Source: Amphiscolops sp. MND2022 (Eukaryota). Taken from it: a stretch of 64,000 bases of DNA. A model generated the notes under the pieces. The model was not told the DNA's origin. It made no database searches and saw nothing but the letters and a program-made list of their open reading frames with translations. Positions 13,855 to 52,808 of the stretch are shown in pieces; the first letter of the stretch is position 1, and each line of letters starts with the position of its first letter. A program made the position numbers and the translations under genes. The stretch covers positions 32,116,001 to 32,180,000 of the forward strand of contig OZ076419.1 in assembly GCA_964187785.1 (NCBI GenBank). Direction: 5' to 3'.

Positions 13855-13866
13855 AAAGAGGGGGAG
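13855..13866 (+). other. Polypurine tract of element A
   Basis: AAAGAGGGGGAG immediately before the LTR start TGTCA. Confidence 0.9.
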
Positions 13867-20517: not shown

Positions 20518-20699
20518 ATAAAAACAAGGCGCTCTCTGAGCACCGAATTTTTTTTCAATTCTGAACTTTATTTGAGGCGACATATTTTTGAGACTCGAGC
20601 GTAAACAATTGTTTACGCTCGAGTCTCAAAAATATGTCGCCTCAAATAAAGTTCAGAATTGAAAAAAATTTCGGTGCTCAGAGAGCGCCTTGTTTTTAT
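20518..20699. repeat. 182-bp spacerless palindrome (91-bp arms, one mismatch)
   Basis: Centre at 20608/20609 (AAACAA|TTGTTT); arms compared base by base. Confidence 0.97.
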
Positions 20700-24809: not shown

Positions 24810-25023
24810 CTTTATTGAAACGATTCAGTTTTGTATTTTCTAATTAACTCTTGTATCGTTTTTTCACAAAGTTGAGAACGAGATCAAAGAAATTGTAGAA
24901 CAACTGGTTTTAGCAAATGAAAAGGACTGACTCCCTAAGAAAACGAAGCGCCTCATATTTATACCCTCGTAGCATCATTTGATCACGAGTAAATCACTAA
25001 TATTCCATAAACAATTAGTCAAT

Positions 25024-27086
25024 TGTAAAGGTTCGATTGAGTTTAGGAGAAATTAGCCTTCTGAGACTCTTGATCAATAGTGTTTAGGAGTTAGTTTGCG
25101 ACTATGCCTTCCTAAACCTTTACAAAAGTTGTCTCTAGGTCTTCCGAGTTCGCAGGAAGGACTTTGTTTCGAGAGAAGAGTTTGAATATATGAAAAGAAT
25201 TTGAATTAGTTCGAGTATTATATTCAACAATGTTTGCTTTTACACAATACGCAAGAATACAATACAAACAGAATAATATAATCATCCAAGTTGACACAAA
25301 TATCCAATCAATAATATCTGAATTGTTTAGCATTCACCACAAATAAATACATCAATTATTTAGGGAGTAATGTTCAGGTAAGTTGTTTAAATACTATAAA
25401 AACTGGAATTTTCTGATCTTATTGTCCAGCAATTTGGTTAGGACAAGTGTGCTGACTTTTGGCCAGAATTACAGTCTATTCAGACCGGTTTGGGGTTCCT
25501 AGAGTTCTCAACAATGTAGTGAGAGTTACTAAGTCTATTGACAATTTACGTGACAGGTTTGTCACACGTTCTAGCTTATAGGAAGCGAAGAACTAGCTTA
25601 TAGGAAGCTGAGAGTTAAGTAAAATAGTTTTAGCCTATATGACCAGCCAATTACTAGGTCGAAGACAGGATTGTCTTGAGCATAGACTTATAAGAAGTCT
25701 TGCGAATCTAAGTGAATTAAGGGTCTTATCTAACCAGCATTCGCTAGGTTTTTGTTCGGACAAGATTGCCGATTGGGCTCGATCCAGAGGTTCGGTGCCG
25801 TGTTCTAAGAGTTTTAACCTATTGCAATGGACCAGCAAGTTTGCTAGGTCGAGAGGAAGACAAGTTTGTCTAAAGACTTTGAAGAAGTCTTGTGAGTCTA
25901 AGTGAGTTAAAGGCCTTATTTCAACCAGCAGTTTGCTAGGTTGCTTTTTAGACAAGATTGTCAGAATTCTGTTCAATACTTTATAAGGTTACATGCATTT
26001 TACTTTTTAATCAGTTTGTTTTACTTGCAAGTTAGCTGCAGTTATTGAAATGATCTAGACTAGCAGTCGCTAAGTCTTGACGCAATCGCGTACTAAGAGG
26101 AAAGTGATCTCCGTCGAGAATTGTTTGGGAGCGTTTAGCTCTAGTTAGTTTTCCCTATGATTTTCATAGGAGAACCTTGTCGGTTGTTTGTCTCTTCAGT
26201 CACTAGGACTGGGGGTTGTCTACAAAAGACAGGTAGGAAAAAGGAGCAAAGAAAAAAGAGAGAAATTTTGAGTTGTGAATTTTGAAGTTATTTTCTAAGT
26301 TAAAGAAAATAACTAACCTGAAGTTTGAAGCAAAGATTGGGTCGGAGAGATTTGTTCTCGCAAGAGAGAGATTTTTTTGAGAGAGATGATTTATAGCAGA
26401 GGCGAAGAGGAGAGTCAGAGTGAGAGTGTGCGAGAGATTTATGCGAGAAAAATTATGAATCAATTTGCTAGAGTCCGGCTTTTTATACGAGCCGACCGAA
26501 CGGTACAACCAATCAAATCGATTGGCGGTTTTTATTGGATACGAAATTATTTCGTCATTGCGTTGCTCATATTTGGAATCGTATTCACCACTGGATGCAG
26601 CCGAATTGGAGTCGGCGGTGATTGCATCAGCTACCGAATATGTTCGGCTAACCGAGCTGGCTGACGCAACTCTTTGTATTTGTCAGGGGAATTAATCCTC
26701 TCAAGTGGGGGACTTTGTTCCCACTTGAGAATTCTTTTGTTTAAAATTGAGAATTTGGCCGTACAAGTGGCGCCTATTATTCTCTTTTCAGAGATATTTA
26801 CTGGCACAAGTGGCGTCGCATATTGTCTTTTCAGGGGAGATAAAAGATAATTATTTGCACAAGTGGCAAGCGTTTTCTTTTGTAGAGGGGAATTCTCCCT
26901 TTCATATGACGCGCAGCTGTAATTTTGTTTATCTCTAAAGTTCTTTCAAGCGTGCCTGGAGAATTGAAAGAATTTGAGTAAGAGTTCACAAAAATTGAAT
27001 AAAAAAATTCTAGCTCCGATTGAATAATTTTCTAAATATGTTTTTTCAAATAATAAATTGAAGAAAAAGTTGTGTTAAACACAACA
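25024..27086 (-). repeat. 3' LTR of element B
   Basis: TG...CA termini; all seven ORF-track peptides match those of 39452-41514 exactly. Confidence 0.96.
25112..25333 (-). CDS. 73-aa single-transmembrane ORF in the LTR (3' LTR copy)
   Basis: ATG start; hydrophobic stretch IFVSTWMIILFCLYCILAYCV; function unknown. Confidence 0.35.
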   Translation of the reverse strand: MLNNSDIIDWIFVSTWMIILFCLYCILAYCVKANIVEYNTRTNSNSFHIFKLFSRNKVLPANSEDLETTFVKV

Positions 27087-27109
27087 ACTCACCCGGGGTT
27101 TAAGAATGA

Positions 27110-27841
27110 TTAAGTTGAAAGGGGGGCATACAGGGTATTTATGACTTTTACTTCGAAAAATATGGAATTGTTTTTTAGCCAGGGGTTCTCTGGGTTCATG
27201 AGTTCATCATGTGGGATGAAGCACAAGATGGTGATTGCTGTATTGCTGGCTGTGGGAATAGGTTTCTTGAAGCACTCACTGTTGTTGTTATTCGTCACAA
27301 TGAGCTGTTTGTAGGGTTTGTAAATATTGCCTTGACCAAGGAGGTGTATCTCGATAACGCCTTGGAAGGGCCAAGTGAGTATCTCATCGTAGGGTCCCGG
27401 ACACATAGCCAAGCATACTGACATGTATTTCCCTTTGGCAGTGTCGATGCCATAAGGATAAGCTCGTAGATGAAAGGTGTACCCAAAGGGTTGTGAGAAG
27501 AAGATAGGGCTACAGACGTCTTTTAGGCAATTAGGATCACAATAGGGTGCTCTTACATGAGACAAACTTTTTTCGTATTTTTCAGCATTCTGAAAAATAT
27601 CAGAGAATTTATCAAGCCTCCAAATAACTTTGTAGAGGTTCCAATCCCGTGGAATTGATTTCTTTTCGATACGAAGGACTCGCATCTCAAGTGCGTCGAG
27701 CTTTTTACTGATCTCGTGTATCATATCAGAATCAAATGTGTCATCTTTATATTGGGTGATATTGAGTTTTTGTCGAAGCAATAGTAACTCATTGATTAGG
27801 GAGTAGCACGTAATGAATAATATCAAAATTTTACTGCACAT
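27110..27841 (-). CDS. TRAF-C (MATH) domain protein with N-terminal hydrophobic segment and short coiled coil, 243 aa, intronless
   Basis: TRAF-type motifs VIWRLDKFS, SPIFFSQPFGYTFHLRAYPYG, GKYMSV, GPYDEILTWPF, FKKP, NSIFFEVKV; no RING or zinc fingers. Confidence 0.9.
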   Translation of the reverse strand: MCSKILILFITCYSLINELLLLRQKLNITQYKDDTFDSDMIHEISKKLDALEMRVLRIEKKSIPRDWNLYKVIWRLDKFSDIFQNAEKYEKSLSHVRAPYCDPNCLKDVCSPIFFSQPFGYTFHLRAYPYGIDTAKGKYMSVCLAMCPGPYDEILTWPFQGVIEIHLLGQGNIYKPYKQLIVTNNNNSECFKKPIPTASNTAITILCFIPHDELMNPENPWLKNNSIFFEVKVINTLYAPLST

Positions 27842-27954
27842 TTTGGAACTAACTGGGGGAAATCTTAGGTGTTTGCCAGAGCTCAGTTTTCAGAGGGGCA
27901 AACTGTTAAGAAGAAAAAATCAAAAAGAGGAAAGTTAAACGGTAGCTTGCTAAC

Positions 27955-28103
27955 CGAGAGTTGGTGGAGTCGAATTTGACAACCAGTTAGAATCAAATTG
28001 ATTCTATTGTTGAAGAATGTTCTTCAGAAACGAGAGTTGGTGGAGTCGAATTTGACAACCAATTAGAATCAAATTGATTCTGTTGTTGAAGAATGTTCTT
28101 CAG
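27955..28103. repeat. Two tandem copies of a 76-bp unit upstream of the TRAF-like ORF
   Basis: CGAGAGTTGGTGGAGTCGAATTTGAC at 27955 and 28031. Confidence 0.9.
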
Positions 28104-28420
28104 GAACTGAAACGAGACAATTATTGTCTAACGTTTTCAACCAGGGTGAACACCGAATTTGGATTTGATAGCTTGCTAACCAAAAATAGGTGTAGTCACA
28201 GTGATCACTGCTTTAGATTTGAGATTGGTGCACAGGTCTATGGATTGAAGATTTCAGTGTCTGGCTCAATTGATAGCCGTTTTCATAAGTACTGAAAGTA
28301 CACTCTGTTATCAGAAGTGAAGTTATGGAATTTGGGATTTGAAGTGAAAGTTGAGAAAGAGGATCGTAAAATTTTATTTACCAAACAAAAATTTATTTCA
28401 AAACGAAAATGAGATGAAAT

Positions 28421-28885
28421 TTACAAATCATAAAACTGGATAAGATCCTTGTACAATTTGCTATATTTAGGTGAAGTGACACACTCAATGTCCATGACAC
28501 TGGTTAATTCACCTAACACAAGCAGATCAAATTTGGTGATGTGCCTTTCAGGTCTCTGTTCGTATGACAGGAGGGAAGCGGCTAGTGACGCGTATAGAAG
28601 GGTGTCCTTGTAGATTTGTTTCTGATACTTTTTGTCAGGCAGGTCGTAACGTTCAAAGTGAACGCAAATCTTGAATTCGTAGGTCCAAGTCCACCGAATA
28701 TAGGTGATCAAAAATTGTTTGTTGTTTTCAGCAACGAAAATAGTCCAGGGGCAATTGAAACTGAGTTCTTCGTACTTTTTCTCCCAGAGGGTATCCCAGT
28801 AAATAGTAGGAGGAGGATAAATTTGAGTAATCCTCGGTTTTGTTCTTTTGCGTGAGTCTTTTTTGAGAATAGACTGTGGGTTCAT
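28421..28885 (-). CDS. Orphan accessory protein, 154 aa from the ATG at 28885 (ORF track 181 aa); paralog of 29676-30086
   Basis: Shares CPW, WxW, KYxK, LYxSLxAxL, MDxxC and YxxxYxD with the 136-aa ORF; AATAAA about 25 nt after the stop. Confidence 0.7.
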   Translation of the reverse strand: MNPQSILKKDSRKRTKPRITQIYPPPTIYWDTLWEKKYEELSFNCPWTIFVAENNKQFLITYIRWTWTYEFKICVHFERYDLPDKKYQKQIYKDTLLYASLAASLLSYEQRPERHITKFDLLVLGELTSVMDIECVTSPKYSKLYKDLIQFYDL

Positions 28886-29103
28886 TAGAGATGGTTGTTT
28901 TCTCCTCTGAACAAATCCGAAGGTATGTCTCCCACAAATTTCATAAGGTGGAGAAAATAGTCCCAATATACTGAATGTTGATCTACAAAAACAATATCTT
29001 TTTTCGAGGTGATGTAGTGCTTTACATAGATATAGATTCTGTCTTGATGCAGCTCAGTTCTATAGATCCGGTAGAATTCGTTTTCAATTTTGATGTAGGT
29101 CAT
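28885..29103 (-). CDS. Orphan accessory ORF, 72 aa (MTYIKIENEF...), stop overlapping the next start
   Basis: ATG at 29103; its TAA overlaps the ATG of the 154-aa ORF (TAATG). Confidence 0.5.
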   Translation of the reverse strand: MTYIKIENEFYRIYRTELHQDRIYIYVKHYITSKKDIVFVDQHSVYWDYFLHLMKFVGDIPSDLFRGENNHL

Positions 29104-29127
29104 ACGACGAACTGAAATAGTCAAAAG

Positions 29128-29568
29128 TTTTTTACCCACGGCAGAGATTGATACTATGATCGTTACCGTGCTGAAAAGTTATTTACCCACGGCAGAGATT
29201 GATACTTTGATCGTTACCGTGCTCGTTTTTGTGAAAAATTCTTTACCCACGGCAGAGATTGATGCTATGATCGTTACCGTGCTGAAAAGTTATTTACCCA
29301 CGGCAGAGATTGATACTTTGATCGTTACCGTGCTCAATTTTGTGAAAAAGTTATTTACCCACGGCAGAGATTGATACTATGATCGTTACCGTGCTGAAAA
29401 GTTATTTACCCACGGCAGAGATTGATACTATGATCGTTACCGTGCTTAATTTTGTGAAAAAGTTATTTACCCACGGCAGAGATTGATACTATGATCGTTA
29501 CCGTGCTCAATTTTGTGAAAAGGTTATTTACCCACGGCAGAGATTGATACTATGATCGTTACCGTGCT
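29128..29568. repeat. Minisatellite: 8 copies of a core of about 41 bp, unit lengths 51 or 60-61 bp
   Basis: TTACCCACGGCAGAGATTGAT at 29132, 29183, 29243, 29294, 29355, 29406, 29467 and 29528. Confidence 0.95.
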
Positions 29569-29675
29569 CAAGAATTTCTGAAACGAAGGACTACAAATTA
29601 GTTATCAGTTTACGTTAAAATGACAATGAAGAGGAGAGAAAAAGAATTTTGACAAGAAGACTTTTATTTACAATA

Positions 29676-30086
29676 TTAGAAATCTTCCATTTCCTGCCAC
29701 AGCTTTAGAGTTTCAAGGAAATCAATGTACATATCATTGTAGCTCGAGTTTTTACAAACATTGTCCATCTGGCTAGAGATGGTGTTGAGAGCGTCGACTT
29801 CTTGTTTTGATAGCTGTGGTTCGGGTTTCCTCATGAACGTTACTAACGCCGCAGTGAGGGACACATAAAGGAATGAACCGGGTTTGACCCATTTGTGGTA
29901 TTTTTGTTTGGACCGGTAGTTATGGAATTTAACTTCTACATCAGCAGTTGGGTGCCAACTCCAACTTAGTTCTTCGATGATCATCGAGATTTCTTCTAAT
30001 TCGGGCATGATATTCCAGGGGCAGCATTTGAAATTTATTTTGTTTATAATCACAATAGGGATGTCGTACGCAATGACAGGCTTCAT
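29676..30086 (-). CDS. Orphan accessory protein, 136 aa; paralog of 28421-28885
   Basis: ATG start, shared motifs with the paralog, AATAAA at 29668-29663. Confidence 0.7.
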   Translation of the reverse strand: MKPVIAYDIPIVIINKINFKCCPWNIMPELEEISMIIEELSWSWHPTADVEVKFHNYRSKQKYHKWVKPGSFLYVSLTAALVTFMRKPEPQLSKQEVDALNTISSQMDNVCKNSSYNDMYIDFLETLKLWQEMEDF

Positions 30087-30997
30087 CTTTGGTTGGCTTG
30101 GGCTGAAGTTTGGTCAAAATAGATACTAAAGCACGAAAATGCTGCTTGACTTACTTTGTAAAATTTAAACAAATATTACAATTGCAAGAGCTGGATTTTT
30201 CAAAAAGCGAAATTTCATACTATTGTTTTTGTTCTTTTCACAAGGTTCTCCTTTAACAAGGCTTTGTCTTTTCTTTTGTTTGTCTACTTCTTTTGTTTCC
30301 TTTTGTAGCCTTTATTGAATAGATTCTTGCATTCTTTTGTTTTCTACATGCTTTTGTTGTTACATGCAGTGGTTCCTTTTGTAAACTCCTTTCAGTTGTT
30401 GACTTTTGTTTTTCGTTTTCTATGGTTTGCATCACTGGCTTTCATCGGCTTGTTTTGTAAAGATCGCGCTTTTGTTGTTGGGTAACGGCGGGTGCCATAT
30501 GTGTTTTTGAAGTAGAGTGTTGAAGTTAGCTTTGTATTGAATGCGCTTTTGTTATGGTTCAGTTCTTTTGGTGCCATGTGTTTTCGAGTGGTTTGAAAAG
30601 TTGTTTGTTCACAATGTGCTTTTGTAATGGTTCAATTCTATGGACGCCATGTGTGTTTTTGAAGTGGTGGCCCAAATTCGGTTTGTGTTGAATGCGCTTT
30701 TGGATGTTAGTCTGATCTCTTCACATTTACAAGTAAGTTCGGTTTTCATTTTCAACTTTTGCTTTTTCTTGAATTTTTGGTAACGTGTATATGACACGCT
30801 CGACCGCCGAAAAAGAAGTAGAGAAAAAGGTTTGAGCCATATGGTGGGGAAGCTTGGAGAGAAAGAAATGAAAGAAAAACAATTCTGAAGAACGGAGTGG
30901 AAAATGGGGGAAATTTTTAAACGGCATAAGGGGGGTGGTGAAAACGAAATTTGAGGTTGTAATTTAGTTGCGTTTCTTTAGGCTGTTTTAGTACACG

Positions 30998-31653
30998 ATG
31001 AACCGTTTGCCATTTTCTACCGCGGATGATGCTTATCTGGCACCAGATCTTTTTGCGGATATGCGATCATTGGTGACTGATTTGGAACTACCAATGATGG
31101 CGGGGACGACAGCGGTGGGCGAGGTGTTGCGACGCCCAGAACCACTCCGGAGAGCAGTTAGATTGGCGTTAGGCGAGCACGTAAGTTGTTGAGTGGTGTA
31201 ACTTGTGAAGCTAAGACATTGTGGAGAAGAGATTTTGAATTAGTTCTTAGTACTAAGAGTAAAAAGGAAATGGAAAGTATTGTCTTTAGCTTCGATTGTA
31301 TAAGTTCTGTAGTTGCAGTTTCTAAGTACGATAAGGTAAACAGAGACGGAATGTTTGTGAAATTAATGTTTTTGTGTATTGATTGCAGTTTGTTTTAGTG
31401 GAGATCGAAGCTACAGTCCGGAGCCAAGGACGTTTGGATTTTTAAACTAAAAGCCATTGTACGGGGATGGGAGATGACTGCTCCACAAGATCGGCCGGAC
31501 ATAGCCCGACGGCTGGATCGGAGTCAGTTTTTCCAAGTGCTGCAGGACTTGGCGGAGTTGGGGGGATATATGGTGTGCCTCTGCGCGGGGCATCCTAAGC
31601 CGCCTCCAAATGGGGCGACTGTTGTCCCTGCCGAAAGGGAAGATTTATTATAA
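30998..31653 (+). CDS. Antisense two-exon gene inside element B (30998-31180 joined to 31399-31653), 145 aa, unknown function
   Basis: Donor CAC|GTAAGT, acceptor TTTGTTTTAG|TGG, both phase 0; the spliced frame is open to TAA at 31651; GC-richer exons within AT-rich flanks. Confidence 0.7.
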
Positions 31654-32437
31654 ACTTTTGTTTATATTGTAAATATTTTGTTTTTGTGTTTTTATTATTT
31701 TAATATTATTTTTGTAATACTTCTGTTTTGACTTTAAATTGTAGGTTGAGAAGTAAGAGAACGTTTTTGACAGTTATAATTTCTAAAAGTTTAGCTAGAG
31801 GAGAAGGATTAGCTAAAACTTTGAGCAATCGCCTCTGTGGAGGCTTGTTGATTAAAACATCAACAGTCACAGTGCTATCTATTCCAGGCAGTTCGACCAT
31901 TTAAGGCGAACCGCCATAGCACAATTTTTCTTTGTAGTTTTTTGTCTCTTGGGAAGACTTGTTGGCGAAAAACCGTCAACAGTCACAGTGGCATCTATTC
32001 CACGCAGTTCAACCATTTAAGGTGAACCGCCGTACCACAAAATTTTTTGTTAACAGAGTTTGTAATTAGGTGATATAAAAATGTCAAATTTTTTTGAAAA
32101 GACAGATGATCAAAAATCCCGATCCAAGAAGTTGTAGGTAACAAGCATGTGTACTGATTACAATTTCCAATAAGGCTGGGGAATTGTCCAGTGTTATTCG
32201 GGGCCAAAAAAAAGGACCGAAGAATTTGGGATTCTGAAATAAGGGTTGACACAATTTTGTACACAATTAAGGTTTTTTATCGGGGGGTAATTCTGTCCCT
32301 GTGCCTCATGATGCAGAGAATGGTGTGTAGTATCCAAATTATGTAGAGCTAGTGTTGTGAACTGAAAAGGTAGATCAGGATTTTGGCGGGACTTAGTATT
32401 AATTGATGTAATAAATGCTAGTGTTATCATTTATTTT

Positions 32438-35400
32438 TTAATCTTTATAGCCTTTTCTCTCAATGTCTCGGAGGGAACTGCCAGGGGTGCTTCGTTCGTA
32501 TTTGGGGTTTTTGGGTTTTTCGGAAAACCGTGTAGTTACTTTCTTTTTGAAGTTAGATAGTTTTCCTGTTTTTGGGGAAACTTGATCAGGGGGAGACACT
32601 GTGTGGATTGGAGGAACGGATGGGAGAACCGGTGTTCTCTTGGGTAGGGGAGTGTTAGAAGAGAATGCGAGTGGTAAGACTGCCACAGGGAGACGTGGTG
32701 TTTGCATAGGTGGAAGTGGATTTGTTCCACAGCTTTGAGGGATACGTTCCCTTAGAATGGAATTGTTAGACGTAGATGGGATCGGGGTGTGAAATTGTGG
32801 GGTTTTCGGAGAAAGGATTCCAGAATCGGTACTGGGGGAAAATTCAGAACCCTTAGAAGTATTGTTATTCGATCCTGAAAGTGGAGTGATAATGAGTGGC
32901 ATAAAATCTAGTTTATGCTCAGGTTGTCCCGAGTTGTGTTTGTCAATTTGAGTTTGGACCAAACGCTTGTAAAAATTATCGTCCTGTTCTACAGGAGCGT
33001 AATTTGTCAGCAATGGGGGTAAAGTTTCCTCTTTGGGAAAATACTCTAGTAAGTGGTTTCGGTGAGTTACTTTAACATTTTCGGGGTTCTCATCTTCTTT
33101 AATCTCGTATGTGGTATTGGTTATTTGTTTTGTTACCGTGAAAGGTCCCACTCGTAATTGTTTCAATTTCTGTGATTTGGATAGGTCGGGTTTGTGATTC
33201 TCCAATAGGACCTTTTGACCAACCGCGAGCGGTCGTCCTAGTTTGAAACGGTTCCGATACTCATGAGCTTTCGATGTGATCTCTCTACATCTTTTGTAGG
33301 TAGATGAGTATATTGATTTGAAGTCGTTTTCTCTTGTAAGTAGTTCGGAAGATAACTGTGGTCTAAGGAGTCGATCGAGGGACTTGTTTCTGAGGTTATT
33401 CTCACTATGGGTGTGAGGTTGTAAATCTGCACAAAATTCTGATTTACATTGTTTGTTTTTGTCGCGAATTAGCCCAAGTTTCAAAGTCATCGGTATTTGA
33501 GGTTTGACGCCGAAGACAATCTCGTAGGGGGTCATACCCGTTGTGTAATTTACGCTTGTGTTATGGGCAAAAGCGAATTTAGATGCAAGTGTTGACCAGT
33601 TGTTTCCTGACTCGTTGGTGAAATTCCTCCAGTATCTCATGAGGTGTTTGTTTTGGACTTCAACTTTGCCATTTGTCCAGGGCGAATAAGCAGTGCGCGG
33701 TGCCAGCGTTATTCCGAACTCTTTGGTCCAATTTACAAAATCGCGGTTGATAAACGCTGAGCCATTATCGTGGACGATTTTTTGGGGAATGCCGTAGGAT
33801 GTGATCCATTTTTCTAGGGCATTGATTGTGGTCTGAGCTCCTGTATCTCGGACCGGATAGACTCCAAGAAATCTCGAGAATGCATCTACTACAACTAGAC
33901 AATGTGTATTCAGGTTACTGCTTGGTCTGATGGGACCTTTGTGGTCGATATGGATTGTTTTGAAGGGGGTTGTCTCGAGTTCGCCCCATTGTTCAAGAGG
34001 AGCTTCTTGTAGATCGTGTCGTTTAGACTTGTTAGTCTGGCATTGTAGACAATCTTCTATCAGGGATACTATCCACTTATATCGTCCAGGCCAAAAGAAA
34101 TTTTGTCTGATGTTTTCGAATGTTTTAAATATGCCTGGGTGGCCACTGTGAGTATGAGCGTGGGCCAGATTAAAGAGGGGTAGGAATAATGATAAGGGGA
34201 CACAGATTTTCATTTCGCATTTGTCCGTCCCATGAATAGGTTCGTTATAGCAGAGTAGGTTGCTTTCTTTATCGAGAAAAAGTTGATTGAAATTGTTGAA
34301 GTACGACAGCAAAGCCTTCGATTGGTGAATCTCTGGTGTTTTGGCGTTCGGCTTATTCTTGTTTCTAACCCAAGCTCGTACAATTTGTAATACAGGATCG
34401 TTGATTTGTTCTGCAACTAAGGTGGTGATGTCCAAATCAGCGGTTTTAGAGTAATCGCTGAGTTTTTGTAAGAGGTCTTTGGTATCAACGTGTGGGAATT
34501 GCTCGACATCTAAATTCTTGTTCAATAGAGGCCTTTCACTTTTCTGTGAAATGTTCTTTTCTTTCGCAGTTGATTTATCGCGATAGAACTCGTGATCTTC
34601 GCTAGAAAGGTGAAGTTCGGCGACTTCCTCTTCATCGTCACTGGAATCGGTTTCGATGTCGTCTATTCTACTATACTCGGGTTCATACTGTATTTTGTAT
34701 GAGGGTAGACAGAGGTTTTTGTATTGATTGATGGATTTTCCCAGTTTGAAACAGTCAGCGATGTCTTGGCGAGTCGCCATTACTGTTTGTTGGTTCTCAT
34801 AGTGCTCTACTTCATGTTCTTCTCCGTCATTCTTGAGATGGAGTAGCCTTTGATCTTTGCCTTTTTGGCAGAGGATAGGGAAAAAGTCATTGCTGCCACA
34901 ATGACCATCGTCATTATGCTCGATTGCATAGTGTACTTTCGATCCAAATTCATCATAGAAACTGATATCTCGCGGTATTTCTTTGTGTAGTTTTTGTAAG
35001 TTTTGGGTTTCTTCCAGCGTGACATTTCTACTAAGTATGTCTGGGAATGCGAGGTTGGATCCTTTAGTCCAGATGATTTTGAGGTTTTGGAACTTGGTGA
35101 TGATTACCTGATACTTGAAAAAGCGATGTGAAAGCTGTCCTTTTCTTCCCCAGAGGTATAAAATAGGTTTGTGATCGCAATAGAGGTATATTGGAAATGG
35201 AGATCCAATAATGTAGTGTTCGTATGTTTGGAGTGCTGATACTATGCCACACAATTCGCGATGAAGGGTGGACATCTTTTGTTCAGCTTTGTCAAATACG
35301 CGGGAATTGAAAGAAACTATCCTTTTTCCTTCTGGAAATTGTTGAACTAGTATACAACCAGTACCAACGTTCGAAGAATCGACGTGTATGTGGAAGGGGT

Positions 35401-38026
35401 ACTCAGTTGAAGGGACAGCAAGAATAGTGTCCTCACATATACGACTTTTTATATCAGTGAAGAGGTCTTCGTGTTCTTTCGTCCATTTGAAAGGCGTTGT
35501 AGCTTTTATCAAATCGTAGAAGGGCTGGCTATCCACGTGTAAGTTTTTGATATAGCAACTGTAAAATCCAAGACAGCCAAGTACTTTCATCACATCTCTT
35601 TTACTTTCGGGTGATTTTAAGTTTTTTAGATCCTGTACTCTTTTTGCTAAGGGTTGTATTCCTTGTTCAGAAATAACATGTCCTAGGAATTTGACTTTCC
35701 TGATGAAGAAATTCGTCTTCTCAGGTGCAGCTTTAAGTCCGGCTTTCCTCAGGAGCTGATGGTACTCATGAATTATCGTGAACATTTCTTGTTTGGTCTG
35801 AGCCTGCATAAGACTGTCATCGAGATAAGTGATAGCTTGTTTTCGCTTGATGAGGGGCTCAAAATGTATAGCCATGAGACGGCTAAAAAAGTTTGGAAGT
35901 CCACAGAGTCCGTAGAAACCACGTACATACGTGTACTGTTTTCCGCCGATAATAAAACTAGTGAGTTTTTGGGTCTCGTCGCTCAAAGGTACTTGGTGAT
36001 ATGCGCAGGATAAATCGCTGACCGTGAAGTACTTTCCGTTAATCCGAGTCATAATCATCTGAATGGGTTCCAATGGCCACGAGTAATTTGTCAGATCTGT
36101 TATGGAATTTAAGTAGCGGGCGTCGATTACTAACTTTACGTAGTCTGCTTTGGGCATCAGAATGATCGGATTGACAAAAAGGGAACCTAGTTCGTCATCG
36201 TCTCCCATTTCTCTAATGATATCGGCTTCTTGGAGTTGTCCAAGTAACTTCTCAAGTTTGTCCTTCAAGTGAAGGGGTACTTTGCTTGGTCGTTGTTTCT
36301 TGAGTTCTGAATTGGCTTTGAGTGTTACGTGAAATTTTTGACGTACTTTTCCCACGTCGAATTTGTGTTGCGAATACACGTCTGCTGAGTCAATAAGCAT
36401 ATCTATTAGGACAACCAATTCTTCATCTTGGAGGTCAGTATATCGGAAATCGAATTTTTTCACATATTCCTTGATTTCTTCACGCTGATATTGGAGGTAG
36501 TATTCTATCAAAGCGTCGTTATCTTCTTTTGTTCTAAGTTCAACAAATTGTTCTGTACAGGGTGGCTGACAAGATTTAGCGTCCGTAGCAAAATCTGTTT
36601 CAAGTTCTTCAGTACCATTAGCAAATTGTTCTGTATAATAGTCAATATCTCCTTCTTCTACTTCTTCTTTTCGTATGGAAGCGTTAACAAGTTGGAGGTT
36701 CGGTTCGTTTCGTGATACGATCTCGACTTTAATATGTCCATAATCGAAGCTGTTACGGATTATGTCCAAAGCTCCTTTCCAGTGGATGTTATCTAAGCCA
36801 TCTTCAATTTTGGGTATTGAAATTGCAGGTATATTGTTTAGTTGTGCGTGTCCAACCAAATTTTCGATGCAACTGCGAAAATCTTCGGGTTTAATTTTTT
36901 CGTAACATCTCTTTTTTGCAACTAGTCCATAGATGAAGCGATTGGCTTCGTTATCCCAAAAGGGTAAAACTGATCCGACGAAAGGTTTCGATTGGTTCAC
37001 GAACTTCTGAAAATCTTTCTTCTGTTCGCACAACCTTTTTGCGAACGTGGTTGTCATTTTTCCATCTGCTGAGACACAAAAAGCTAGATTTGCATTTGAG
37101 GCTCGAAGGGTCTCGCCGGAGCCGTGGCTTAGAAAAACTTGTTGGTCTCCTTCGTGTTCGAAGGGAACTGTTGAGTGTAGCAAGAAACAGTCGTTGTAGT
37201 CTGGGTTTTCCTTTAAAATTGTGTTGACCATCGTGACACAATCCTTTATCTGGAACTTTGGTCGTTCTTTTTCCTGTAGGTCTATGACAGCATGACCAAT
37301 TATTCCTCTATTAAGGGTTATTTGGTGATTTCGATTATTTTCAATCAAAATTGGCAGGTGGGATTCGGACTTCGTACATAAAACATTCACAAAGGTAAGT
37401 CCTGTTTTGACTGCATTTTTGTGGGGTGTGAATGATGTTCCGGGTGCAAAATGTCTGTTATTTTCGCGGGAGTACTTGTGTAGGCGGGTAGTTTTGGCAT
37501 CGATGCAAATTGGGTTATCTGTTCGTATTGTTTCGACCTTTGAAACGTACGGGAAGGGTTTGGTAGCACAAAGGTTACCGTAGCAAATCGTGTTAGGACT
37601 GTCTTTCAATTCGATTGCAGGCAAATCAAAATGTAATTTAGAAACAAGTTGACGGCAGAAATCTATTCCCAGTAAATTGGGTGTCTTCGCTTCTGTTATC
37701 CAAAACTTTAGCTCTACAGGATGGAGTCCATCCGAGTCGAAACTGAATGTGATTGTTGTTGATCCAAGCATCGGTATAACTTCGCCAGTATAGGTTTTAG
37801 TCAGCTGTTTGCTCCTGACTACCGTGATGGGTTGTCCAAACTGTGCAATTTCCTCAAAAGCTCTGTAATTGATGATTGAACAGGCTGCTCCTGTATCTAG
37901 CATGAATTCTATTTCTAACCCACTATCTTTTTTGGAGTCTCCGGTGGGAAAAAAGAAGAGATTTAGGTGAAAACGTGATTTGAGGTTACTTTCTTCGTCA
38001 GGTCGCGGAGACTTTAGCAGTTTAAA
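32438..38026 (-). CDS. pol: Pol of element B: protease, macro domain, RT, RNase H, integrase; expressed by -1 frameshift from gag
   Basis: LDTGA; YLDD; HVDSS / ELCG / CDHKP; HHCC; IHIDHKG / VHDNGSAF / VEVQN; GPF. Uninterrupted 1821 aa from ATG 37903, with the frame open back to 38026. Confidence 0.97.
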   Translation of the reverse strand, partial: FKLLKSPRPDEESNLKSRFHLNLFFFPTGDSKKDSGLEIEFMLDTGAACSIINYRAFEEIAQFGQPITVVRSKQLTKTYTGEVIPMLGSTTITFSFDSDGLHPVELKFWITEAKTPNLLGIDFCRQLVSKLHFDLPAIELKDSPNTICYGNLCATKPFPYVSKVETIRTDNPICIDAKTTRLHKYSRENNRHFAPGTSFTPHKNAVKTGLTFVNVLCTKSESHLPILIENNRNHQITLNRGIIGHAVIDLQEKERPKFQIKDCVTMVNTILKENPDYNDCFLLHSTVPFEHEGDQQVFLSHGSGETLRASNANLAFCVSADGKMTTTFAKRLCEQKKDFQKFVNQSKPFVGSVLPFWDNEANRFIYGLVAKKRCYEKIKPEDFRSCIENLVGHAQLNNIPAISIPKIEDGLDNIHWKGALDIIRNSFDYGHIKVEIVSRNEPNLQLVNASIRKEEVEEGDIDYYTEQFANGTEELETDFATDAKSCQPPCTEQFVELRTKEDNDALIEYYLQYQREEIKEYVKKFDFRYTDLQDEELVVLIDMLIDSADVYSQHKFDVGKVRQKFHVTLKANSELKKQRPSKVPLHLKDKLEKLLGQLQEADIIREMGDDDELGSLFVNPIILMPKADYVKLVIDARYLNSITDLTNYSWPLEPIQMIMTRINGKYFTVSDLSCAYHQVPLSDETQKLTSFIIGGKQYTYVRGFYGLCGLPNFFSRLMAIHFEPLIKRKQAITYLDDSLMQAQTKQEMFTIIHEYHQLLRKAGLKAAPEKTNFFIRKVKFLGHVISEQGIQPLAKRVQDLKNLKSPESKRDVMKVLGCLGFYSCYIKNLHVDSQPFYDLIKATTPFKWTKEHEDLFTDIKSRICEDTILAVPSTEYPFHIHVDSSNVGTGCILVQQFPEGKRIVSFNSRVFDKAEQKMSTLHRELCGIVSALQTYEHYIIGSPFPIYLYCDHKPILYLWGRKGQLSHRFFKYQVIITKFQNLKIIWTKGSNLAFPDILSRNVTLEETQNLQKLHKEIPRDISFYDEFGSKVHYAIEHNDDGHCGSNDFFPILCQKGKDQRLLHLKNDGEEHEVEHYENQQTVMATRQDIADCFKLGKSINQYKNLCLPSYKIQYEPEYSRIDDIETDSSDDEEEVAELHLSSEDHEFYRDKSTAKEKNISQKSERPLLNKNLDVEQFPHVDTKDLLQKLSDYSKTADLDITTLVAEQINDPVLQIVRAWVRNKNKPNAKTPEIHQSKALLSYFNNFNQLFLDKESNLLCYNEPIHGTDKCEMKICVPLSLFLPLFNLAHAHTHSGHPGIFKTFENIRQNFFWPGRYKWIVSLIEDCLQCQTNKSKRHDLQEAPLEQWGELETTPFKTIHIDHKGPIRPSSNLNTHCLVVVDAFSRFLGVYPVRDTGAQTTINALEKWITSYGIPQKIVHDNGSAFINRDFVNWTKEFGITLAPRTAYSPWTNGKVEVQNKHLMRYWRNFTNESGNNWSTLASKFAFAHNTSVNYTTGMTPYEIVFGVKPQIPMTLKLGLIRDKNKQCKSEFCADLQPHTHSENNLRNKSLDRLLRPQLSSELLTRENDFKSIYSSTYKRCREITSKAHEYRNRFKLGRPLAVGQKVLLENHKPDLSKSQKLKQLRVGPFTVTKQITNTTYEIKEDENPENVKVTHRNHLLEYFPKEETLPPLLTNYAPVEQDDNFYKRLVQTQIDKHNSGQPEHKLDFMPLIITPLSGSNNNTSKGSEFSPSTDSGILSPKTPQFHTPIPSTSNNSILRERIPQSCGTNPLPPMQTPRLPVAVLPLAFSSNTPLPKRTPVLPSVPPIHTVSPPDQVSPKTGKLSNFKKKVTTRFSEKPKNPKYERSTPGSSLRDIERKGYKD
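36715..37140 (-). other. TARG1/Poa1-type macro domain within Pol
   Basis: LAFCVSADGKM...FAK, FIYGLVAKKR, SIPKIEDGLDNIHW, IKVEIV are collinear with the TARG1 consensus AHCxSxDxxMGxGIA, YYLxTK, MPRIGCGLDxLxW. Confidence 0.8.
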
Positions 38027-39408
38027 GGATTGAACGAGACTGTACTAACTCTGTCCTGTCCTTCTTCGTCAATGAACTGTACGGAGTTTGGGAAACTGTT
38101 ATTGTTGGTCGGGAAATTTCGGTTGTACTCAGAATTTGTGTTTTGTGGTCGTGCACTGAAGTTATACGGGCTATTTGGCCTATTTCCAGTATAGGGTGTA
38201 TTATTTCGCAAATTGGTACTAGTAGAAGTTGGTCTACTACTTGAAGGGTGATTGTTATTGCCATTGAAGTTGTTGAAGTTGTTTGACTGCTGAGAATTAT
38301 TTCGGTTCCAGTTTTCATTTCGATTGTTTCCTTCGTTAGGTCTGCCTCTGTTGAAGTTTTGGTTCGACTGTTGGTTACTTCTTTGATTATTGGTGAAGTT
38401 CGGTCTTGGTGAAGACTGATAATTTTGTTGTGATCCAAATCCGGGTCCCTTCCGTTTGTTGTAGTCGTTGGTGAAGGTGACCTTCTTCTCTTCATTAGCT
38501 CGTGATTGTGCTCTCTTGGCTTCGTCATCGTAGATCTTCTTTCGGCAATATTGGAGTGTATGACCCTTCCTTTGGCAGTATTTACAAAATCGTGTGATGT
38601 TTTGGCGGGACGTGTTATTTACGTCTACTGCAGAGACGTGATAATCATGCCAGTGAGAGGATGGGCATCCGTAGGGTAGAGAGTTAGTTACAGCTAAAGA
38701 ATTGACTTGTTGTTCTTTGAGCATATTCTTCATTGCGTTGATGTCTTCTCGTAGTTCGTTTATCAACGTTTTTTGGTTTTGTGAGGAGTTCGGAGCTAGC
38801 TGAGAGCTGATAGTAAAAACAAGGTCTTTATTAGTTACATGTTCCTGAAATTGTTCCCAAGTAGCGTTGGGGTGTTCAATTAGGTATTGGTGAGCCTTGT
38901 TCTTTAGTTCGTTAGGCGTTAGTCCTCTGACTGCAAATTCAATGTACTTTTGCCTTCTTTGAGCGTTCAGTGCGGCTCTAGCTGCGTTATCAGCATTTTC
39001 TTCGTCTGGCCATCCTCTATCGACAGCTCGTTTCACTCGGTGAAAGTAGTTCTTTATTATTTCTTCATTCCCTCTGACACTATTTTCTGCAGTTATTCTG
39101 TATCTGTATTTATCTCTATTGTCGGAAAAGCGGGTTAGGAAATGGGTTCTAATATGTTGCCAATCGTGTCCATCTCCTATGTTGTCTGTATACCACTCGG
39201 CGGCAGGTCCTCTTAGTAGGGATGAGAAAAGTGCTTTTTTGCGAAATAAGTATCTTGCTCGATCGTCATCATTGTCGGGTTCATGACCCATCGAGAAATT
39301 GATTTTGTTCTCAACAGTTGTGAGAAATGATCTGACATCTTGTTCGGGATCGTTTCCTGAGAATTTGTCCAAAGCGAGGTCGGGAAATGAAACTGTGTTG
39401 TCTGCCAT
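38014..39408 (-). CDS. gag: Gag of element B, 464 aa
   Basis: Capsid-like KFSG...SSLLRGPAAEWY; zinc knuckle CKYCQRKGHTLQYC; Asn-rich tail. Confidence 0.95.
   Translation of the reverse strand: MADNTVSFPDLALDKFSGNDPEQDVRSFLTTVENKINFSMGHEPDNDDDRARYLFRKKALFSSLLRGPAAEWYTDNIGDGHDWQHIRTHFLTRFSDNRDKYRYRITAENSVRGNEEIIKNYFHRVKRAVDRGWPDEENADNAARAALNAQRRQKYIEFAVRGLTPNELKNKAHQYLIEHPNATWEQFQEHVTNKDLVFTISSQLAPNSSQNQKTLINELREDINAMKNMLKEQQVNSLAVTNSLPYGCPSSHWHDYHVSAVDVNNTSRQNITRFCKYCQRKGHTLQYCRKKIYDDEAKRAQSRANEEKKVTFTNDYNKRKGPGFGSQQNYQSSPRPNFTNNQRSNQQSNQNFNRGRPNEGNNRNENWNRNNSQQSNNFNNFNGNNNHPSSSRPTSTSTNLRNNTPYTGNRPNSPYNFSARPQNTNSEYNRNFPTNNNSFPNSVQFIDEEGQDRVSTVSFNPLNC
38020..38026 (-). other. -1 frameshift slippery site U UUA AAC (element B)
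   Basis: Phased with gag codons just before the gag stop; the -1 frame is continuous with pol; an 8-bp stem AGTCTCCG/CGGAGACT starts 6 nt downstream. Confidence 0.85.
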
Positions 39409-39431
39409 TCCTCTCTTTTGCTTGAATGTCG

Positions 39432-39448
39432 CCTCACTGGTCGCACCA
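39432..39448 (-). other. Primer-binding site of element B
   Basis: TGGTGCGACCAGTGAGG, 3 nt after the 5' LTR; the tRNA identity is uncertain (pattern resembles elongator tRNA-Met). Confidence 0.75.
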
Positions 39449-39539
39449 GTTTGTAAAGGTTCGATTGAGTTTAGGAGAAATTAGCCTTCTGAGACTCTTG
39501 ATCAATAGTGTTTAGGAGTTAGTTTGCGACTATGCCTTC

Positions 39540-39761
39540 CTAAACCTTTACAAAAGTTGTCTCTAGGTCTTCCGAGTTCGCAGGAAGGACTTTGTTTCGA
39601 GAGAAGAGTTTGAATATATGAAAAGAATTTGAATTAGTTCGAGTATTATATTCAACAATGTTTGCTTTTACACAATACGCAAGAATACAATACAAACAGA
39701 ATAATATAATCATCCAAGTTGACACAAATATCCAATCAATAATATCTGAATTGTTTAGCAT
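39540..39761 (-). CDS. 73-aa single-transmembrane ORF in the 5' LTR, upstream of gag
   Basis: Same sequence as 25112-25333; sense orientation; lies in the predicted leader. Confidence 0.35.
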   Translation of the reverse strand: MLNNSDIIDWIFVSTWMIILFCLYCILAYCVKANIVEYNTRTNSNSFHIFKLFSRNKVLPANSEDLETTFVKV

Positions 39762-40908
39762 TCACCACAAATAAATACATCAATTATTTAGGGAGTAATG
39801 TTCAGGTAAGTTGTTTAAATACTATAAAAACTGGAATTTTCTGATCTTATTGTCCAGCAATTTGGTTAGGACAAGTGTGCTGACTTTTGGCCAGAATTAC
39901 AGTCTATTCAGACCGGTTTGGGGTTCCTAGAGTTCTCAACAATGTAGTGAGAGTTACTAAGTCTATTGACAATTTACGTGACAGGTTTGTCACACGTTCT
40001 AGCTTATAGGAAGCGAAGAACTAGCTTATAGGAAGCTGAGAGTTAAGTAAAATAGTTTTAGCCTATATGACCAGCCAATTACTAGGTCGAAGACAGGATT
40101 GTCTTGAGCATAGACTTATAAGAAGTCTTGCGAATCTAAGTGAATTAAGGGTCTTATCTAACCAGCATTCGCTAGGTTTTTGTTCGGACAAGATTGCCGA
40201 TTGGGCTCGATCCAGAGGTTCGGTGCCGTGTTCTAAGAGTTTTAACCTATTGCAATGGACCAGCAAGTTTGCTAGGTCGAGAGGAAGACAAGTTTGTCTA
40301 AAGACTTTGAAGAAGTCTTGTGAGTCTAAGTGAGTTAAAGGCCTTATTTCAACCAGCAGTTTGCTAGGTTGCTTTTTAGACAAGATTGTCAGAATTCTGT
40401 TCAATACTTTATAAGGTTACATGCATTTTACTTTTTAATCAGTTTGTTTTACTTGCAAGTTAGCTGCAGTTATTGAAATGATCTAGACTAGCAGTCGCTA
40501 AGTCTTGACGCAATCGCGTACTAAGAGGAAAGTGATCTCCGTCGAGAATTGTTTGGGAGCGTTTAGCTCTAGTTAGTTTTCCCTATGATTTTCATAGGAG
40601 AACCTTGTCGGTTGTTTGTCTCTTCAGTCACTAGGACTGGGGGTTGTCTACAAAAGACAGGTAGGAAAAAGGAGCAAAGAAAAAAGAGAGAAATTTTGAG
40701 TTGTGAATTTTGAAGTTATTTTCTAAGTTAAAGAAAATAACTAACCTGAAGTTTGAAGCAAAGATTGGGTCGGAGAGATTTGTTCTCGCAAGAGAGAGAT
40801 TTTTTTGAGAGAGATGATTTATAGCAGAGGCGAAGAGGAGAGTCAGAGTGAGAGTGTGCGAGAGATTTATGCGAGAAAAATTATGAATCAATTTGCTAGA
40901 GTCCGGCT

Positions 40909-40966
40909 TTTTATACGAGCCGACCGAACGGTACAACCAATCAAATCGATTGGCGGTTTTTATTGG
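40909..40966 (-). promoter_or_regulatory. Putative LTR promoter of element B (CCAAT boxes and TATAAAA)
   Basis: Minus-strand CCAAT at 40966-40962 and 40953-40949, TATAAAA at 40915-40909; the same motifs lie at 26481-26538 in the 3' LTR. Confidence 0.6.
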
Positions 40967-43900
40967 ATACGAAATTATTTCGTCATTGCGTTGCTCATAT
41001 TTGGAATCGTATTCACCACTGGATGCAGCCGAATTGGAGTCGGCGGTGATTGCATCAGCTACCGAATATGTTCGGCTAACCGAGCTGGCTGACGCAACTC
41101 TTTGTATTTGTCAGGGGAATTAATCCTCTCAAGTGGGGGACTTTGTTCCCACTTGAGAATTCTTTTGTTTAAAATTGAGAATTTGGCCGTACAAGTGGCG
41201 CCTATTATTCTCTTTTCAGAGATATTTACTGGCACAAGTGGCGTCGCATATTGTCTTTTCAGGGGAGATAAAAGATAATTATTTGCACAAGTGGCAAGCG
41301 TTTTCTTTTGTAGAGGGGAATTCTCCCTTTCATATGACGCGCAGCTGTAATTTTGTTTATCTCTAAAGTTCTTTCAAGCGTGCCTGGAGAATTGAAAGAA
41401 TTTGAGTAAGAGTTCACAAAAATTGAATAAAAAAATTCTAGCTCCGATTGAATAATTTTCTAAATATGTTTTTTCAAATAATAAATTGAAGAAAAAGTTG
41501 TGTTAAACACAACACAATTCCTGTATTTTCGATGAAAAAGTCATTATAATCCCAAATTTGCGTCGACTTGTCGTCATTTTTTAAGACACGACATTTCTTA
41601 TCTAGCATTAGTCATCAAACATGATCATATCCTTTCATTCCGGCGTCCTTTTGTTTCCTCCCAAACAGGAAGTAGATATTACTTCAGTCCGTCAAACTGG
41701 AAGTATTTCCCCGTTTTACTAATTTGGTTCGTTAGAAACTGACGCGGAAATGACGCTGACGTGAACAACTGATACCTGATTTTGATTTTTTACTCGATGA
41801 AAATCACGACTAATCGCAGCTGTTTGAAATATTTGGAGATGCTAGGAGAATAAGAGAGCTGATTTTCGGATGAGTGTGCTTAATTTAGGAAAAAATTATC
41901 ACATTCAATCCTCAAATATCCGAACTGACATGATTAATGTAATCATAGGATAGCGCCGTGACAACGTCAAAATAATTATTACAACCGAAATTTGAACATC
42001 AACAATAACTTTCAACTAGCATACTGATCATTTAGGCTTATTAACGCAAAATCGAAAACATAGCATCAACGCAGAGACATCATAGTAGATAATATGAACA
42101 TACCATTATAAGGTATGAGATTAATACTAGAAAATATCATTTCTGACAAGTTTCATTACTTGATCGATGAGCGCGTCACAACAACGTCACTCTGTACAAA
42201 GTACTAGACAGAGGTTTATAACAAGCAACAAGGATGAGTATTTGTATTAATTCCCAATAGGTTAACTGTGACCTCCGTTCGTTAAAAATAGAAAGGTTTC
42301 ATTTAGATTAAACCTTCAGTGTTATCTTAGATCAGCAATAATCCTTTTGACGAGGAGTTGACGTATTCTACAGTTTTCCTGATATCCCGGTTTCAACTTA
42401 AGCCTAAACTTTGCATCTACTTTGTGTCATTTCCATTAAATTAACGCTGATTTTATCATTTTGGATGGGTTGAAACAGCTATTTTGATGGATTTGCGACA
42501 TAGCGTTGACAAGGTTTCTTAGCTAAATTGGCTAGCTGCCAAGTTTGACGAGATGCTGACGAGTCTTTTGGAATGAAATTCTGACTAACTGTCGAGTAAT
42601 TTGGAATTCTTTGTTAGCTGACAAGTTAGTGACGCATTGCTGATGTCACAAGTATGGTAATATTTGCATGTACCGTCAAGATTTGTTTACTTAGCGATGA
42701 GACGTCGTCCTAATTCTACATTAATTGCTGTTCAAAGAACAATTAAGCTGCATTCCCTTAGAAGAGGCATAATTCTTTCGGTGTACCATCTCAATGTAGT
42801 TGCTGTTTTAGATCTGATTGATGTTCTTTCTCATAGATGATTTTGGATATGTTCTCATTTAGATTAGTCTGTGATCTATATTCCAAGACGTATCGTAATT
42901 TTGTTTTCAGGTGGCGAATGTATTTATTTTGACGGGGCAAAAAAGCGTCTGAACGGAAATGCGTGCAAACATTTTGATTCATTTAGTTGCCAGTATTCAT
43001 TTTCATTTATGATTTGCGCAAAGTAGACGAGTACTTCGTGTTTTTAGTCACAGTTTATTTTGAAAATAAGTAATATAGTTTGAGTTCAATACCCGAAATA
43101 CCACTTGGAGAACCTCTGAATGGACCCCTGACGATTGCTATTCTTCTGCAGTTACACCCCAGACCGGGAGCGGACTGTGACTAAATGGATCTGAATTTTA
43201 AATTCTGGTGCTTCCTGTATCCGTTTTCGAAGATTTTGTTTGTTTGGTGGTCTACAGGCTGAGCACTACGAAAAGCTGTAACAGACCACACCGGCGACAT
43301 AAAAACAGGACTCTATCCATCGGGACGCGCACCCACGCAAGTAAAATGGGCCAGTGATGAATGACCGTCAGCCCTGGAAAAATAAATCATTTATGGCAGT
43401 TCCACCCATTGTATAACGTTTAAGCAACCTGATAACGCTTGTTGTTACATATTACAGACTACATGTAGAAAATTTACATTGTGAGGGCGGAGAGACTTTC
43501 CCAAGAATCTAACCCTAACAGAAAAAAGTTTTTCTTTGGTGGATAAGTGTTTTGCGTTGAGTAGCTTGACTAGGTTTCTCTTCAGCTCTCCGGTATGCTC
43601 TTCGGCTCAACTCAACCGATCATAAAAAGAGATGTCCAATAACCCAATCCAAGTTGTAATCAAAACCATCTCTTCAAAAAATATCGAAGCAATAAAACAA
43701 ACTCGCTAAGATTGAAATCCACGATTCAGTCGAACATTCAAAGGCAAGTCCCTGTTTTGTACAATGTCTGACTTTAGAACTACTACTGACGAACGAGTTC
43801 TTTAGCTTAGCCAAGTCTCTTGCTTTCGTCCTAAGGCTCAACTTACTGGTAGCTCTCTAACTCCGTTGCGTTCAATCAAGTAAATTCCGAATCCGCATCA

Positions 43901-52609: not shown

Positions 52610-52808
52610 TGTGGTAGAGCGCTACATTGTCACCTTCACTAATGTAAAAACAGTTGTGAGAAAATTATTAAGTACTAACAACCTGCCAAAATAGGCCAAA
52701 GTGGCAAAATCAGAAATATAGCTACATACACAAGAAACGTCATTCAAAACAGTTTACATCCCGTTACTGTTCTCACTTCATCGAGCTAGAATTTTTTGAG
52801 CTATTACA
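52610..52808 (+). repeat. 5' LTR of element C
   Basis: TGTGG...TTACA; matches 62743-62941. Confidence 0.93.

Follow-up and report, generated by a model that had tools for sequence, protein, structure and literature searches.

The window analysed here, a 64,000-nucleotide stretch of contig OZ076419.1 (positions 32,116,001 to 32,180,000), carries on its minus strand, at 25024-41514, a Ty3/Gypsy retrotransposon flanked by long terminal repeats (LTRs). The two LTRs are letter-for-letter identical and have the ends TG...CA, and the element is bordered by a 4-bp target-site duplication (TSD), CAAT/CAAT; TSDs of 4 bp were also observed at three further copies of the same clade (clade A). The pol frame is open over 1,821 aa from the ATG at position 37903, stays open for 47 codons further upstream and lies in frame -1 relative to gag. 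Pfam analysis identified the reverse transcriptase (RT), RNase H, H2C2 and rve domains, and the motifs DTG, YLDD, HHCC and D-35-E are present. The order protease-RT-RNase H-integrase in pol, the Retrotrans_gag domain, the LTR ends, the TSD and a tRNA primer-binding site (PBS) place the element in the Metaviridae. The interval of 5.35 kb between pol and the 3' LTR contains sense open reading frames (ORFs) of 136, 72, 154 and 243 aa and a two-exon antisense gene. A first-pass annotation of the window had already pointed to apparently identical LTRs of about 2 kb with a TSD, to intact gag and pol, to a very recent insertion and to some 5.3 kb of extra DNA with at least four sense ORFs, all of which was confirmed; gag (464 aa) and pol are both open and have all catalytic motifs.

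The same annotation had considered the element as intact and as carrying an accessory cassette instead of env, and neither view held. Full-length copies of the family measure 19,234 and 19,233 bp and hold ORFs of 702 aa (env), 169 aa and 250 aa (the TRAF gene). Compared to these, the window copy is short by exactly 2,686 bp, lost between the two units of a 13-bp repeat. The deletion took out ORF169, almost the entire env and the TRAF gene's 5' end, and it joined the first ~17 env codons, corresponding to the signal peptide, in frame to the TRAF gene, giving the 243-aa ORF. When the 1.07-Gb host assembly was searched with this ORF, no copy other than that of the window matched residues 1-13, and the junction pattern is single-copy in that assembly. 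From 150 scored matches (633 candidates), 36 copies at >=98% identity were taken; the env segment is found at 33 of these 36 places and the full 718-codon frame at 27 of them (matched by position), one near-identical copy on C4 having no env row among the matches listed. An uninterrupted env was detected in seven out of nine sampled A copies and in six out of eleven sampled copies of the related group B. Because of the 2,686-bp deletion, this very recent insertion is an env-deleted derivative and does not count as intact. The earlier statement that no env-like ORF is present therefore applies to the window copy and fails for the family, which encodes a 702-aa Env. The deletion may have arisen from template switching of the RT or from microhomology repair after insertion. 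It would render the window copy fusion-incompetent, and the fusion to the Env signal peptide likely misroutes its TRAF protein. A second env-less A copy (L035+L036, G000:C12:~58.452-58.469 Mb) has identical LTRs and other breakpoints, and retains a complete TRAF ORF and the larger part of ORF169. In a B copy (L041+L042, G000:C6:~53.506-53.520 Mb), gag and most of pol are gone, with env and the cassette intact.

Table 1. Features of the env-deleted element and its borders, in window coordinates.
Feature	Position	Strand	Evidence or remark
Target-site duplication CAAT, left	25020-25023	.	right copy 41515-41518
3' LTR, 2,063 bp	25024-27086	-	identity to 5' LTR
Env signal peptide/TRAF fusion ORF, 243 aa	27110-27841	-	Pfam TRAF-mep_MATH E=7e-22 and junction analysis
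13-bp microhomology at 2,686-bp deletion	27791-27803	-	junction pattern once in genome
ORF154	28421-28885	-	paralog family; start overlaps ORF72 stop (TAATG)
ORF72	28885-29103	-	conserved, 71-73 aa at like place in every clade
51/61-bp tandem repeats	29123-29571	.	between ORF136 and ORF72
ORF136	29676-30086	-	ORF154 paralog, ~30% identity
Antisense gene, predicted exon 1 (61 codons, then GTAAGT)	30998-31180	+	pattern conservation
Antisense gene, predicted exon 2 (84 codons and stop)	31399-31653	+	pattern conservation, dN/dS
pol frame (protease, macro, RT, RNase H, integrase)	32438-38044	-	Pfam and motifs
TARG1/OARD1-like macro domain	36704-37156	-	between protease and RT
TTTAAAC heptamer at gag end	38020-38026	-	kept in clades A and C/D
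gag, 464 aa	38014-39408	-	Pfam Retrotrans_gag
Primer-binding site, 18 nt	39431-39448	-	complementary to tRNA 3' end
5' LTR, 2,063 bp	39452-41514	-	identity to 3' LTR

The family was sampled with 60 genome stretches, which comprise the window's clade (A/B) and two others (C/D/E and F/G/H/I). The full layout was established as LTR - PBS - gag - pol(macro) - antisense gene - ORF136 - ORF72 - ORF154 - env - ORF169 - coiled-coil/TRAF-C - LTR. A typical A member is ~19.2 kb long and C/D/E members are 19.1-19.5 kb, and the pol of F/G/H/I is ~54% identical to that of A. The same gene order is found in these three divergent clades, with small paralogs varying in number and place (in F/G/H/I one of them lies directly 3' of pol). 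Common to all clades are pol with its macro domain, the antisense gene, an ORF of 71-73 aa, two to three small paralogs, env, an ORF169-like frame and the TRAF ORF. Identity within LTR pairs amounts to 99.6-100% for copies of A, C, D, E and F, and is lower for those of B, G, H and I.

The ratio of non-synonymous to synonymous substitution rates (dN/dS) was determined between five to nine A copies and six to eleven B copies. Values of 0.05 for gag, 0.04 for pol, 0.06 for the macro domain and 0.05 for TRAF were obtained, and env, at 0.02, was the most constrained gene of the accessory region. ORF154 (confidence interval, CI, 0.07-0.21), ORF72 (CI 0.04-0.25) and ORF169 each gave 0.12, and antisense exon 2 gave 0.08 (CI 0.04-0.19). 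The synonymous rate was saturated for ORF136 (70 synonymous to 46 non-synonymous changes) and antisense exon 1 (37 to 9). Control frames reached 0.38, 0.40 and 0.62. Pairwise values elsewhere ranged from 0.02 to 0.28 in C/D/E and from 0.02 to 0.36 in F/G/I/H. Judged from these substitution patterns, the accessory genes are under purifying selection, since they stand apart from the control frames even with a method that is biased low. Individual copies accumulate stops and deletions. The first-pass annotation had left it to a survey of family copies whether the cassette is conserved and selected; it turned out to be lineage-wide and under purifying selection, neither private to the window copy nor neutral. 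A 73-aa ORF within the LTR was rejected as a gene (dN/dS 0.62, CI 0.21-2.35).

The 702-aa ORF matched the Pfam family Monjiviricetes_fusion (PF24664) with E=1.7e-39. It displays a hydrophobic N-terminal stretch, considered by eye as a signal peptide, a transmembrane segment at ~600-626 (hydropathy) and 16 Cys residues. A structural model built from 43 sequences (predicted local distance difference test, pLDDT, 61.5; predicted template-modelling score, pTM, 0.37) was matched by Foldseek to herpes gB, baculovirus GP64 and Dhori GP, with 96 PDB chains at E<=1e-3 and a best value of 5e-8. A sequence search of the PDB gave no match, and no relative was found among nine candidate stretches in viral contigs; the protein database contains 231 relatives, none of which is named among the 120 matches listed. 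Its Pfam and fold matches assign the Env of the family to class III (gB-like), and an enveloped endogenous retrovirus (ERV) is the likely form in which the family spreads.

The macro domain in Pol, also part of the first-pass annotation, was validated by its match to human TARG1/OARD1 structures (4j5q, E=2.4e-11), with Pfam Macro below its cut-off (18.3 vs 22 bits). Only five of 177,635 PDB sequences were recovered at E<=1, all of them TARG1. Fold homology to 4j5q extends to the TARG1 lysine (AKKR vs TKKR) and to the aspartate of GLD, which align in the window family and which we take to be catalytic. The glycine loops, presumably binding the diphosphate in TARG1, differ: GAG is replaced by TTT and GCG by EDG, which weakens the case for a role in counter-defence. 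The signature varies by clade, with AHCISAD, TKNK and IGCGLD in C/D/E, TTT and IEDGLD in A/B, and no GLD in F/G/H/I. All three versions are constrained (dN/dS 0.06-0.08), whether or not the signature is lost. When acquired, the domain would have been a TARG1-type ADP-ribose eraser, an activity that clade C/D/E probably retains; in the window family the domain is likely binding-impaired or structural. Since all three versions are constrained, the activity may have been replaced by a binding or structural role.

The TRAF gene encodes a coiled coil (judged by alignment to TRAF1) and a TRAF-C/MATH domain, with TRAF1/5 as best PDB matches, and retains the host motifs RxY and WPF. No RING or zinc fingers were found in the element ORFs or in their nearest named host relative. 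A host TRAF gene on C3 (G000:C3:~90.867 Mb; L069, ~90866500-90869800) has introns separating the coiled coil, the MATH domain and the last exon, and is 43-52% identical over these three exons to the intronless clade-C ORF. Because an intron-bearing host gene matches an intronless ORF in this way, the element gene was likely captured via mRNA from a RING-less host TRAF. The C3 gene is itself RING-less with a zinc-finger remnant and is a candidate donor. The idea of a dominant negative created by RING deletion was dropped, as the nearest host gene lacks a RING and the element therefore did not lose one. Relatives of the MATH domain of the C3 gene were found at 72-94%, including one named cluster, from Convolutriloba macropyga, the models of which are RING-less. 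Protein XP_075250303 of this species also combines a coiled coil with TRAF-C in the absence of a RING and is 40% identical over 189 aa to the clade-C ORF; in contrast to such TRAF1-like proteins, the element TRAF genes have no introns, are shorter and have diverged much further. With C. macropyga as the named TRAF relative, the host is likely an acoel. In an in-genome tree (five rows roughly trimmed), element branches of TRAF reach 0.6-1.3, compared to RT distances of ~0.1-0.3.

The element protein could act as a trimerising decoy or adaptor that would dampen or redirect host TRAF signalling. In the available parts of the respective papers, acoels are reported to be devoid of NF-kB and the Toll pathway (PMC12849515), and knock-down of a planarian TRAF led to more cell death (PMC7586133). 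For these two reasons, stress or survival signalling is a better candidate target than NF-kB, a proposal for which we see the chances as evenly balanced. A genome search for RHD (NF-kB/NFAT), run in the absence of a positive control, gave no match, and a search for TIR domains gave eight. No MATH domain was found within 20 kb downstream of a host zf-TRAF gene on C10 (one match of 21 scored). An intronless 344-aa coiled-coil/MATH ORF (L071, G000:C1:103772736-103773770), 55% identical to the host C3 TRAF, is bordered by inverted copies of a 197-aa ORF, with similar matches on C76 and C2, and is possibly a second, independent TRAF capture by a mobile element of non-LTR type.

ORF136 and ORF154 are paralogs and were grouped with C107/106/132 and, more weakly, with F/H ORFs. 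In a database of 1.84 billion proteins their profile recovered 70 at E<=1e-3, and no named protein was present in the nine clusters inspected. The family gave no Pfam match over cut-off, no usable Atlas match and no Foldseek match at E<=1e-3 in PDB and viral libraries. The model (pLDDT 90) predicts four strands and two helices; its best VIA Z of 4.4 and scattered PH-like/Tudor-like rows show neither a new fold nor the absence of one. The small paralogs are likely diversified protein-interaction modules. Members of this family also lie directly upstream of gag in other elements, where P0264 runs into the gag start and the P0259 cluster counts 121 members.

The antisense gene is predicted to consist of two exons, with a phase 0 donor GTAAGT and an acceptor TTTTAG. 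The donor pattern was found in 19 of 20 sampled A/B copies and the acceptor pattern in 18 of those 19, with an intron of 155-219 nt. Three sister-clade copies have the donor and a TGG-starting exon 2 at a like place, giving the two-exon arrangement of C/D/E. In F/G/I, unspliced antisense ORFs of 196-231 aa occur, the C-terminus of which weakly matches exon 2 (tblastn E 5e-7; profile E 3e-4); C1 and D1 were not recovered with the profile. The protein has no Pfam match, and its Atlas matches are unnamed clusters that serve as leads only. Of the antisense spliced gene described in the first-pass annotation, the two-exon structure with conserved donor and acceptor thus stands, and splicing stays a prediction. 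Element A (window 2-14908) is an older Gypsy element with 361-bp LTRs at 97% and broken gag and pol. It displays several antisense frames, e.g. 266 aa at 8474-9274, and showed no homology (tblastn) to the cassette or env of the 25024-41514 element.

Gag-Pol is, we infer, produced via -1 ribosomal frameshifting at the in-register TTTAAAC heptamer. The tRNA 3' end corresponding to the PBS gave 11 genomic T-loop matches, one of three loci scanned by ARAGORN being tRNA-Met, so that the priming tRNA is likely tRNA-Met(CAT). Before the 3' LTR, the motif AAACCC(C)GGGTGAG is conserved in five copies of two clades and no classical purine run is present. Elsewhere in the window, a five-copy tandem array with a ~1.34-kb unit at 93-97% identity occupies 52600-59400, a 203-bp repeat occurs at 52610 and 62743, and 171-bp tandem repeats and a spacerless palindrome with 97-bp arms were located at 19124-19928 and 20512-20705.

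A distant relative, L101 (JAAUYE010140917.1), encodes gag-pol-env with 57% pol identity and 690 bp between pol and env. No macro domain, TRAF or pre-env paralog array was found on this 13,166-bp contig. Since L101 has gag-pol-env without them, these three look like later, stepwise additions, as judged from a single contig and an unrooted comparison. Two paralogous post-env ORFs of L101 (338 and 290 aa) faintly resemble ORF169, whose resemblance to ORFs 3' of env in distant relatives is weak (E 3e-5 with L100; 0.004-0.005 pairwise with L101).

All these results are probably best explained by an enveloped Ty3/Gypsy family of 19.2 kb with about seven conserved accessory genes, among them a captured TRAF that likely modulates host signalling; the window holds a very recent, env-deleted copy of this family. 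Several points weigh against this reading. The counting method is biased low, as seen from control frames that likewise stay under 1 (with 1 outside one of the CIs), and purifying selection indicates use to the element and is silent on which use. A strict splice acceptor lies <=45 nt from 9 of 46 ORF starts (background 4-8%; the copies are related and non-independent), no 5' splice donor was found in five of seven elements examined, and an own acceptor for every ORF was not established. The Env model is moderate, with TM-scores of 0.09-0.13 and rmsd >30 A against its structural matches, and the class III call is therefore taken from Pfam and local fold matches only. The MATH tree, with its roughly trimmed rows, is a polytomy with long element branches and thus proves neither a single capture nor the donor, and the assignment of the host to the acoels is indirect. 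A more ambitious reading, which we hold only tentatively, considers the family as an expanding 'complex' invertebrate ERV lineage in which a Ty3/Gypsy core with a gB-type Env was joined stepwise by an accessory set of lentivirus scale. This set would comprise a TRAF decoy, a TARG1 eraser decaying by clade, an expanding small-protein family and an antisense gene with splicing in certain clades and none in others; its existence would hint at an anti-retroelement pathway, so far undescribed, in animals without Toll/NF-kB.

The lineage could also be env-less, with an anti-immunity cassette (an NF-kB antagonist and an active macro hydrolase) replacing env. The window copy without an env ORF, the real and conserved TRAF-C and macro domains and the second env-less A copy on C12, with its different breakpoints, would be in agreement with it. 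However, the env of nearly all close copies and its strong constraint refute this at the family level, and the single-copy junction, the altered macro loops and the reported lack of NF-kB in acoels leave it a negligible chance. The 'counter-defence toolkit' of the first-pass annotation fares better in one respect, as its cassette is indeed conserved throughout the lineage; its NF-kB and ADP-ribosylation aspect is weakened by the same macro loops and acoel report and by the RING-less host TRAF. An enveloped element whose accessory genes do housekeeping work (RNA export or splicing control, assembly, trafficking or budding, integration targeting), with TRAF-C as a trimerisation or scaffold module, is unlikely without being far-fetched: every gene is under purifying and not positive selection, the macro domain stays conserved in spite of signature loss, and the small paralogs have no immune-related homolog, one of them lying directly upstream of gag in other elements. 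In contrast, the TRAF gene retains the host RxY and WPF motifs and diverges far faster than RT, it is absent from L101 with its full gag-pol-env, and TRAF-C capture recurs in planarian Burro beside apoptosis domains, as described in the available part of that report (PMC6431247). Passive or host-beneficial cargo, either hitchhiking captured sequence or sequence kept as help to the host, is very improbable. Frequent capture is conceivable, since the host TRAF also has an intronless relative inside a repeat that looks unrelated and bears long inverted repeats, but in each of the three clades dN/dS along element lineages is far under that of the control frames, and the order of the genes, their stop-start overlaps and the phase of the intron are conserved. 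Stops and deletions in single copies are what is expected if selection acts on replicating lineages.

The gB-type env is widespread in Ty3/Gypsy elements, as the available part of the work on 'ancient errantiviruses' with HSV/gB-type env states (Chary & Hayashi, eLife, PMC13524379). The family shares with them the gag-pol-env order, a class III gB-like Env, multi-copy recent expansion and a tRNA PBS, and differs in that env lies 4.6 kb after pol, behind the accessory array. The prefilter given there (gaps <=1 kb, size <=10 kb, manual extension 3-5 kb) implies that elements like this 19.2-kb family are easily missed; the available text makes no mention of acoel, Xenacoelomorpha, macro, TRAF, accessory or antisense, and none of six acoel terms occurs in the supplements. 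From the accessible description (PMC6431247), planarian Burro/GYPSM1 is likewise a Gypsy element with env homology and MATH_TRAF_C (in one species as a separate accessory ORF), and its domains were proposed to interfere with apoptosis and ubiquitination. Burro exceeds 30 kb and has a polyprotein of ~5,000 aa, env between gag and pol, and BIR, BCL2, ankyrin and dUTPase domains; compared by description, the present family has 19 kb, separate ORFs, env after pol, a macro domain in Pol, an antisense gene predicted to be spliced and new small paralogs. Fish epsilon-like ERVs with macro ORFs and foamy-like ERVs with accessory genes are similar in having a macro domain or several accessory ORFs, as far as the available descriptions go (PMC4977317, PMC6431247). 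Those are Retroviridae with macro as an additional ORF, whereas here a TARG1-type domain sits between protease and RT of a Ty3/Gypsy Pol. No description of the family or of a TARG1 domain inside a Gypsy Pol was found in the literature searched, with subscription papers, Repbase, Dfam and GyDB lying outside that search and a prior description being possible. The same literature yielded no precedent for the gene combination, for a TARG1 domain embedded in Pol, for the small paralogs, for the antisense gene or for an acoel as likely host.

The window copy records one microhomology deletion that turned an enveloped element env-less, and is an example of a single copy misrepresenting its family. 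Gypsy elements with an env are, as a rule, portrayed as simple, with three genes; the present lineage combines the gene content of a complex retrovirus, under selection, with many near-identical recent copies, and it falls outside the size and gap prefilters of the errantivirus survey, the broadest one available (PMC13524379). The clades with intact, altered and lost macro signatures offer a built-in comparison. Provided that the host is indeed an acoel, the captured TRAF and the TARG1-like domain would be natural probes of how retroelements are sensed in an animal without Toll/NF-kB.

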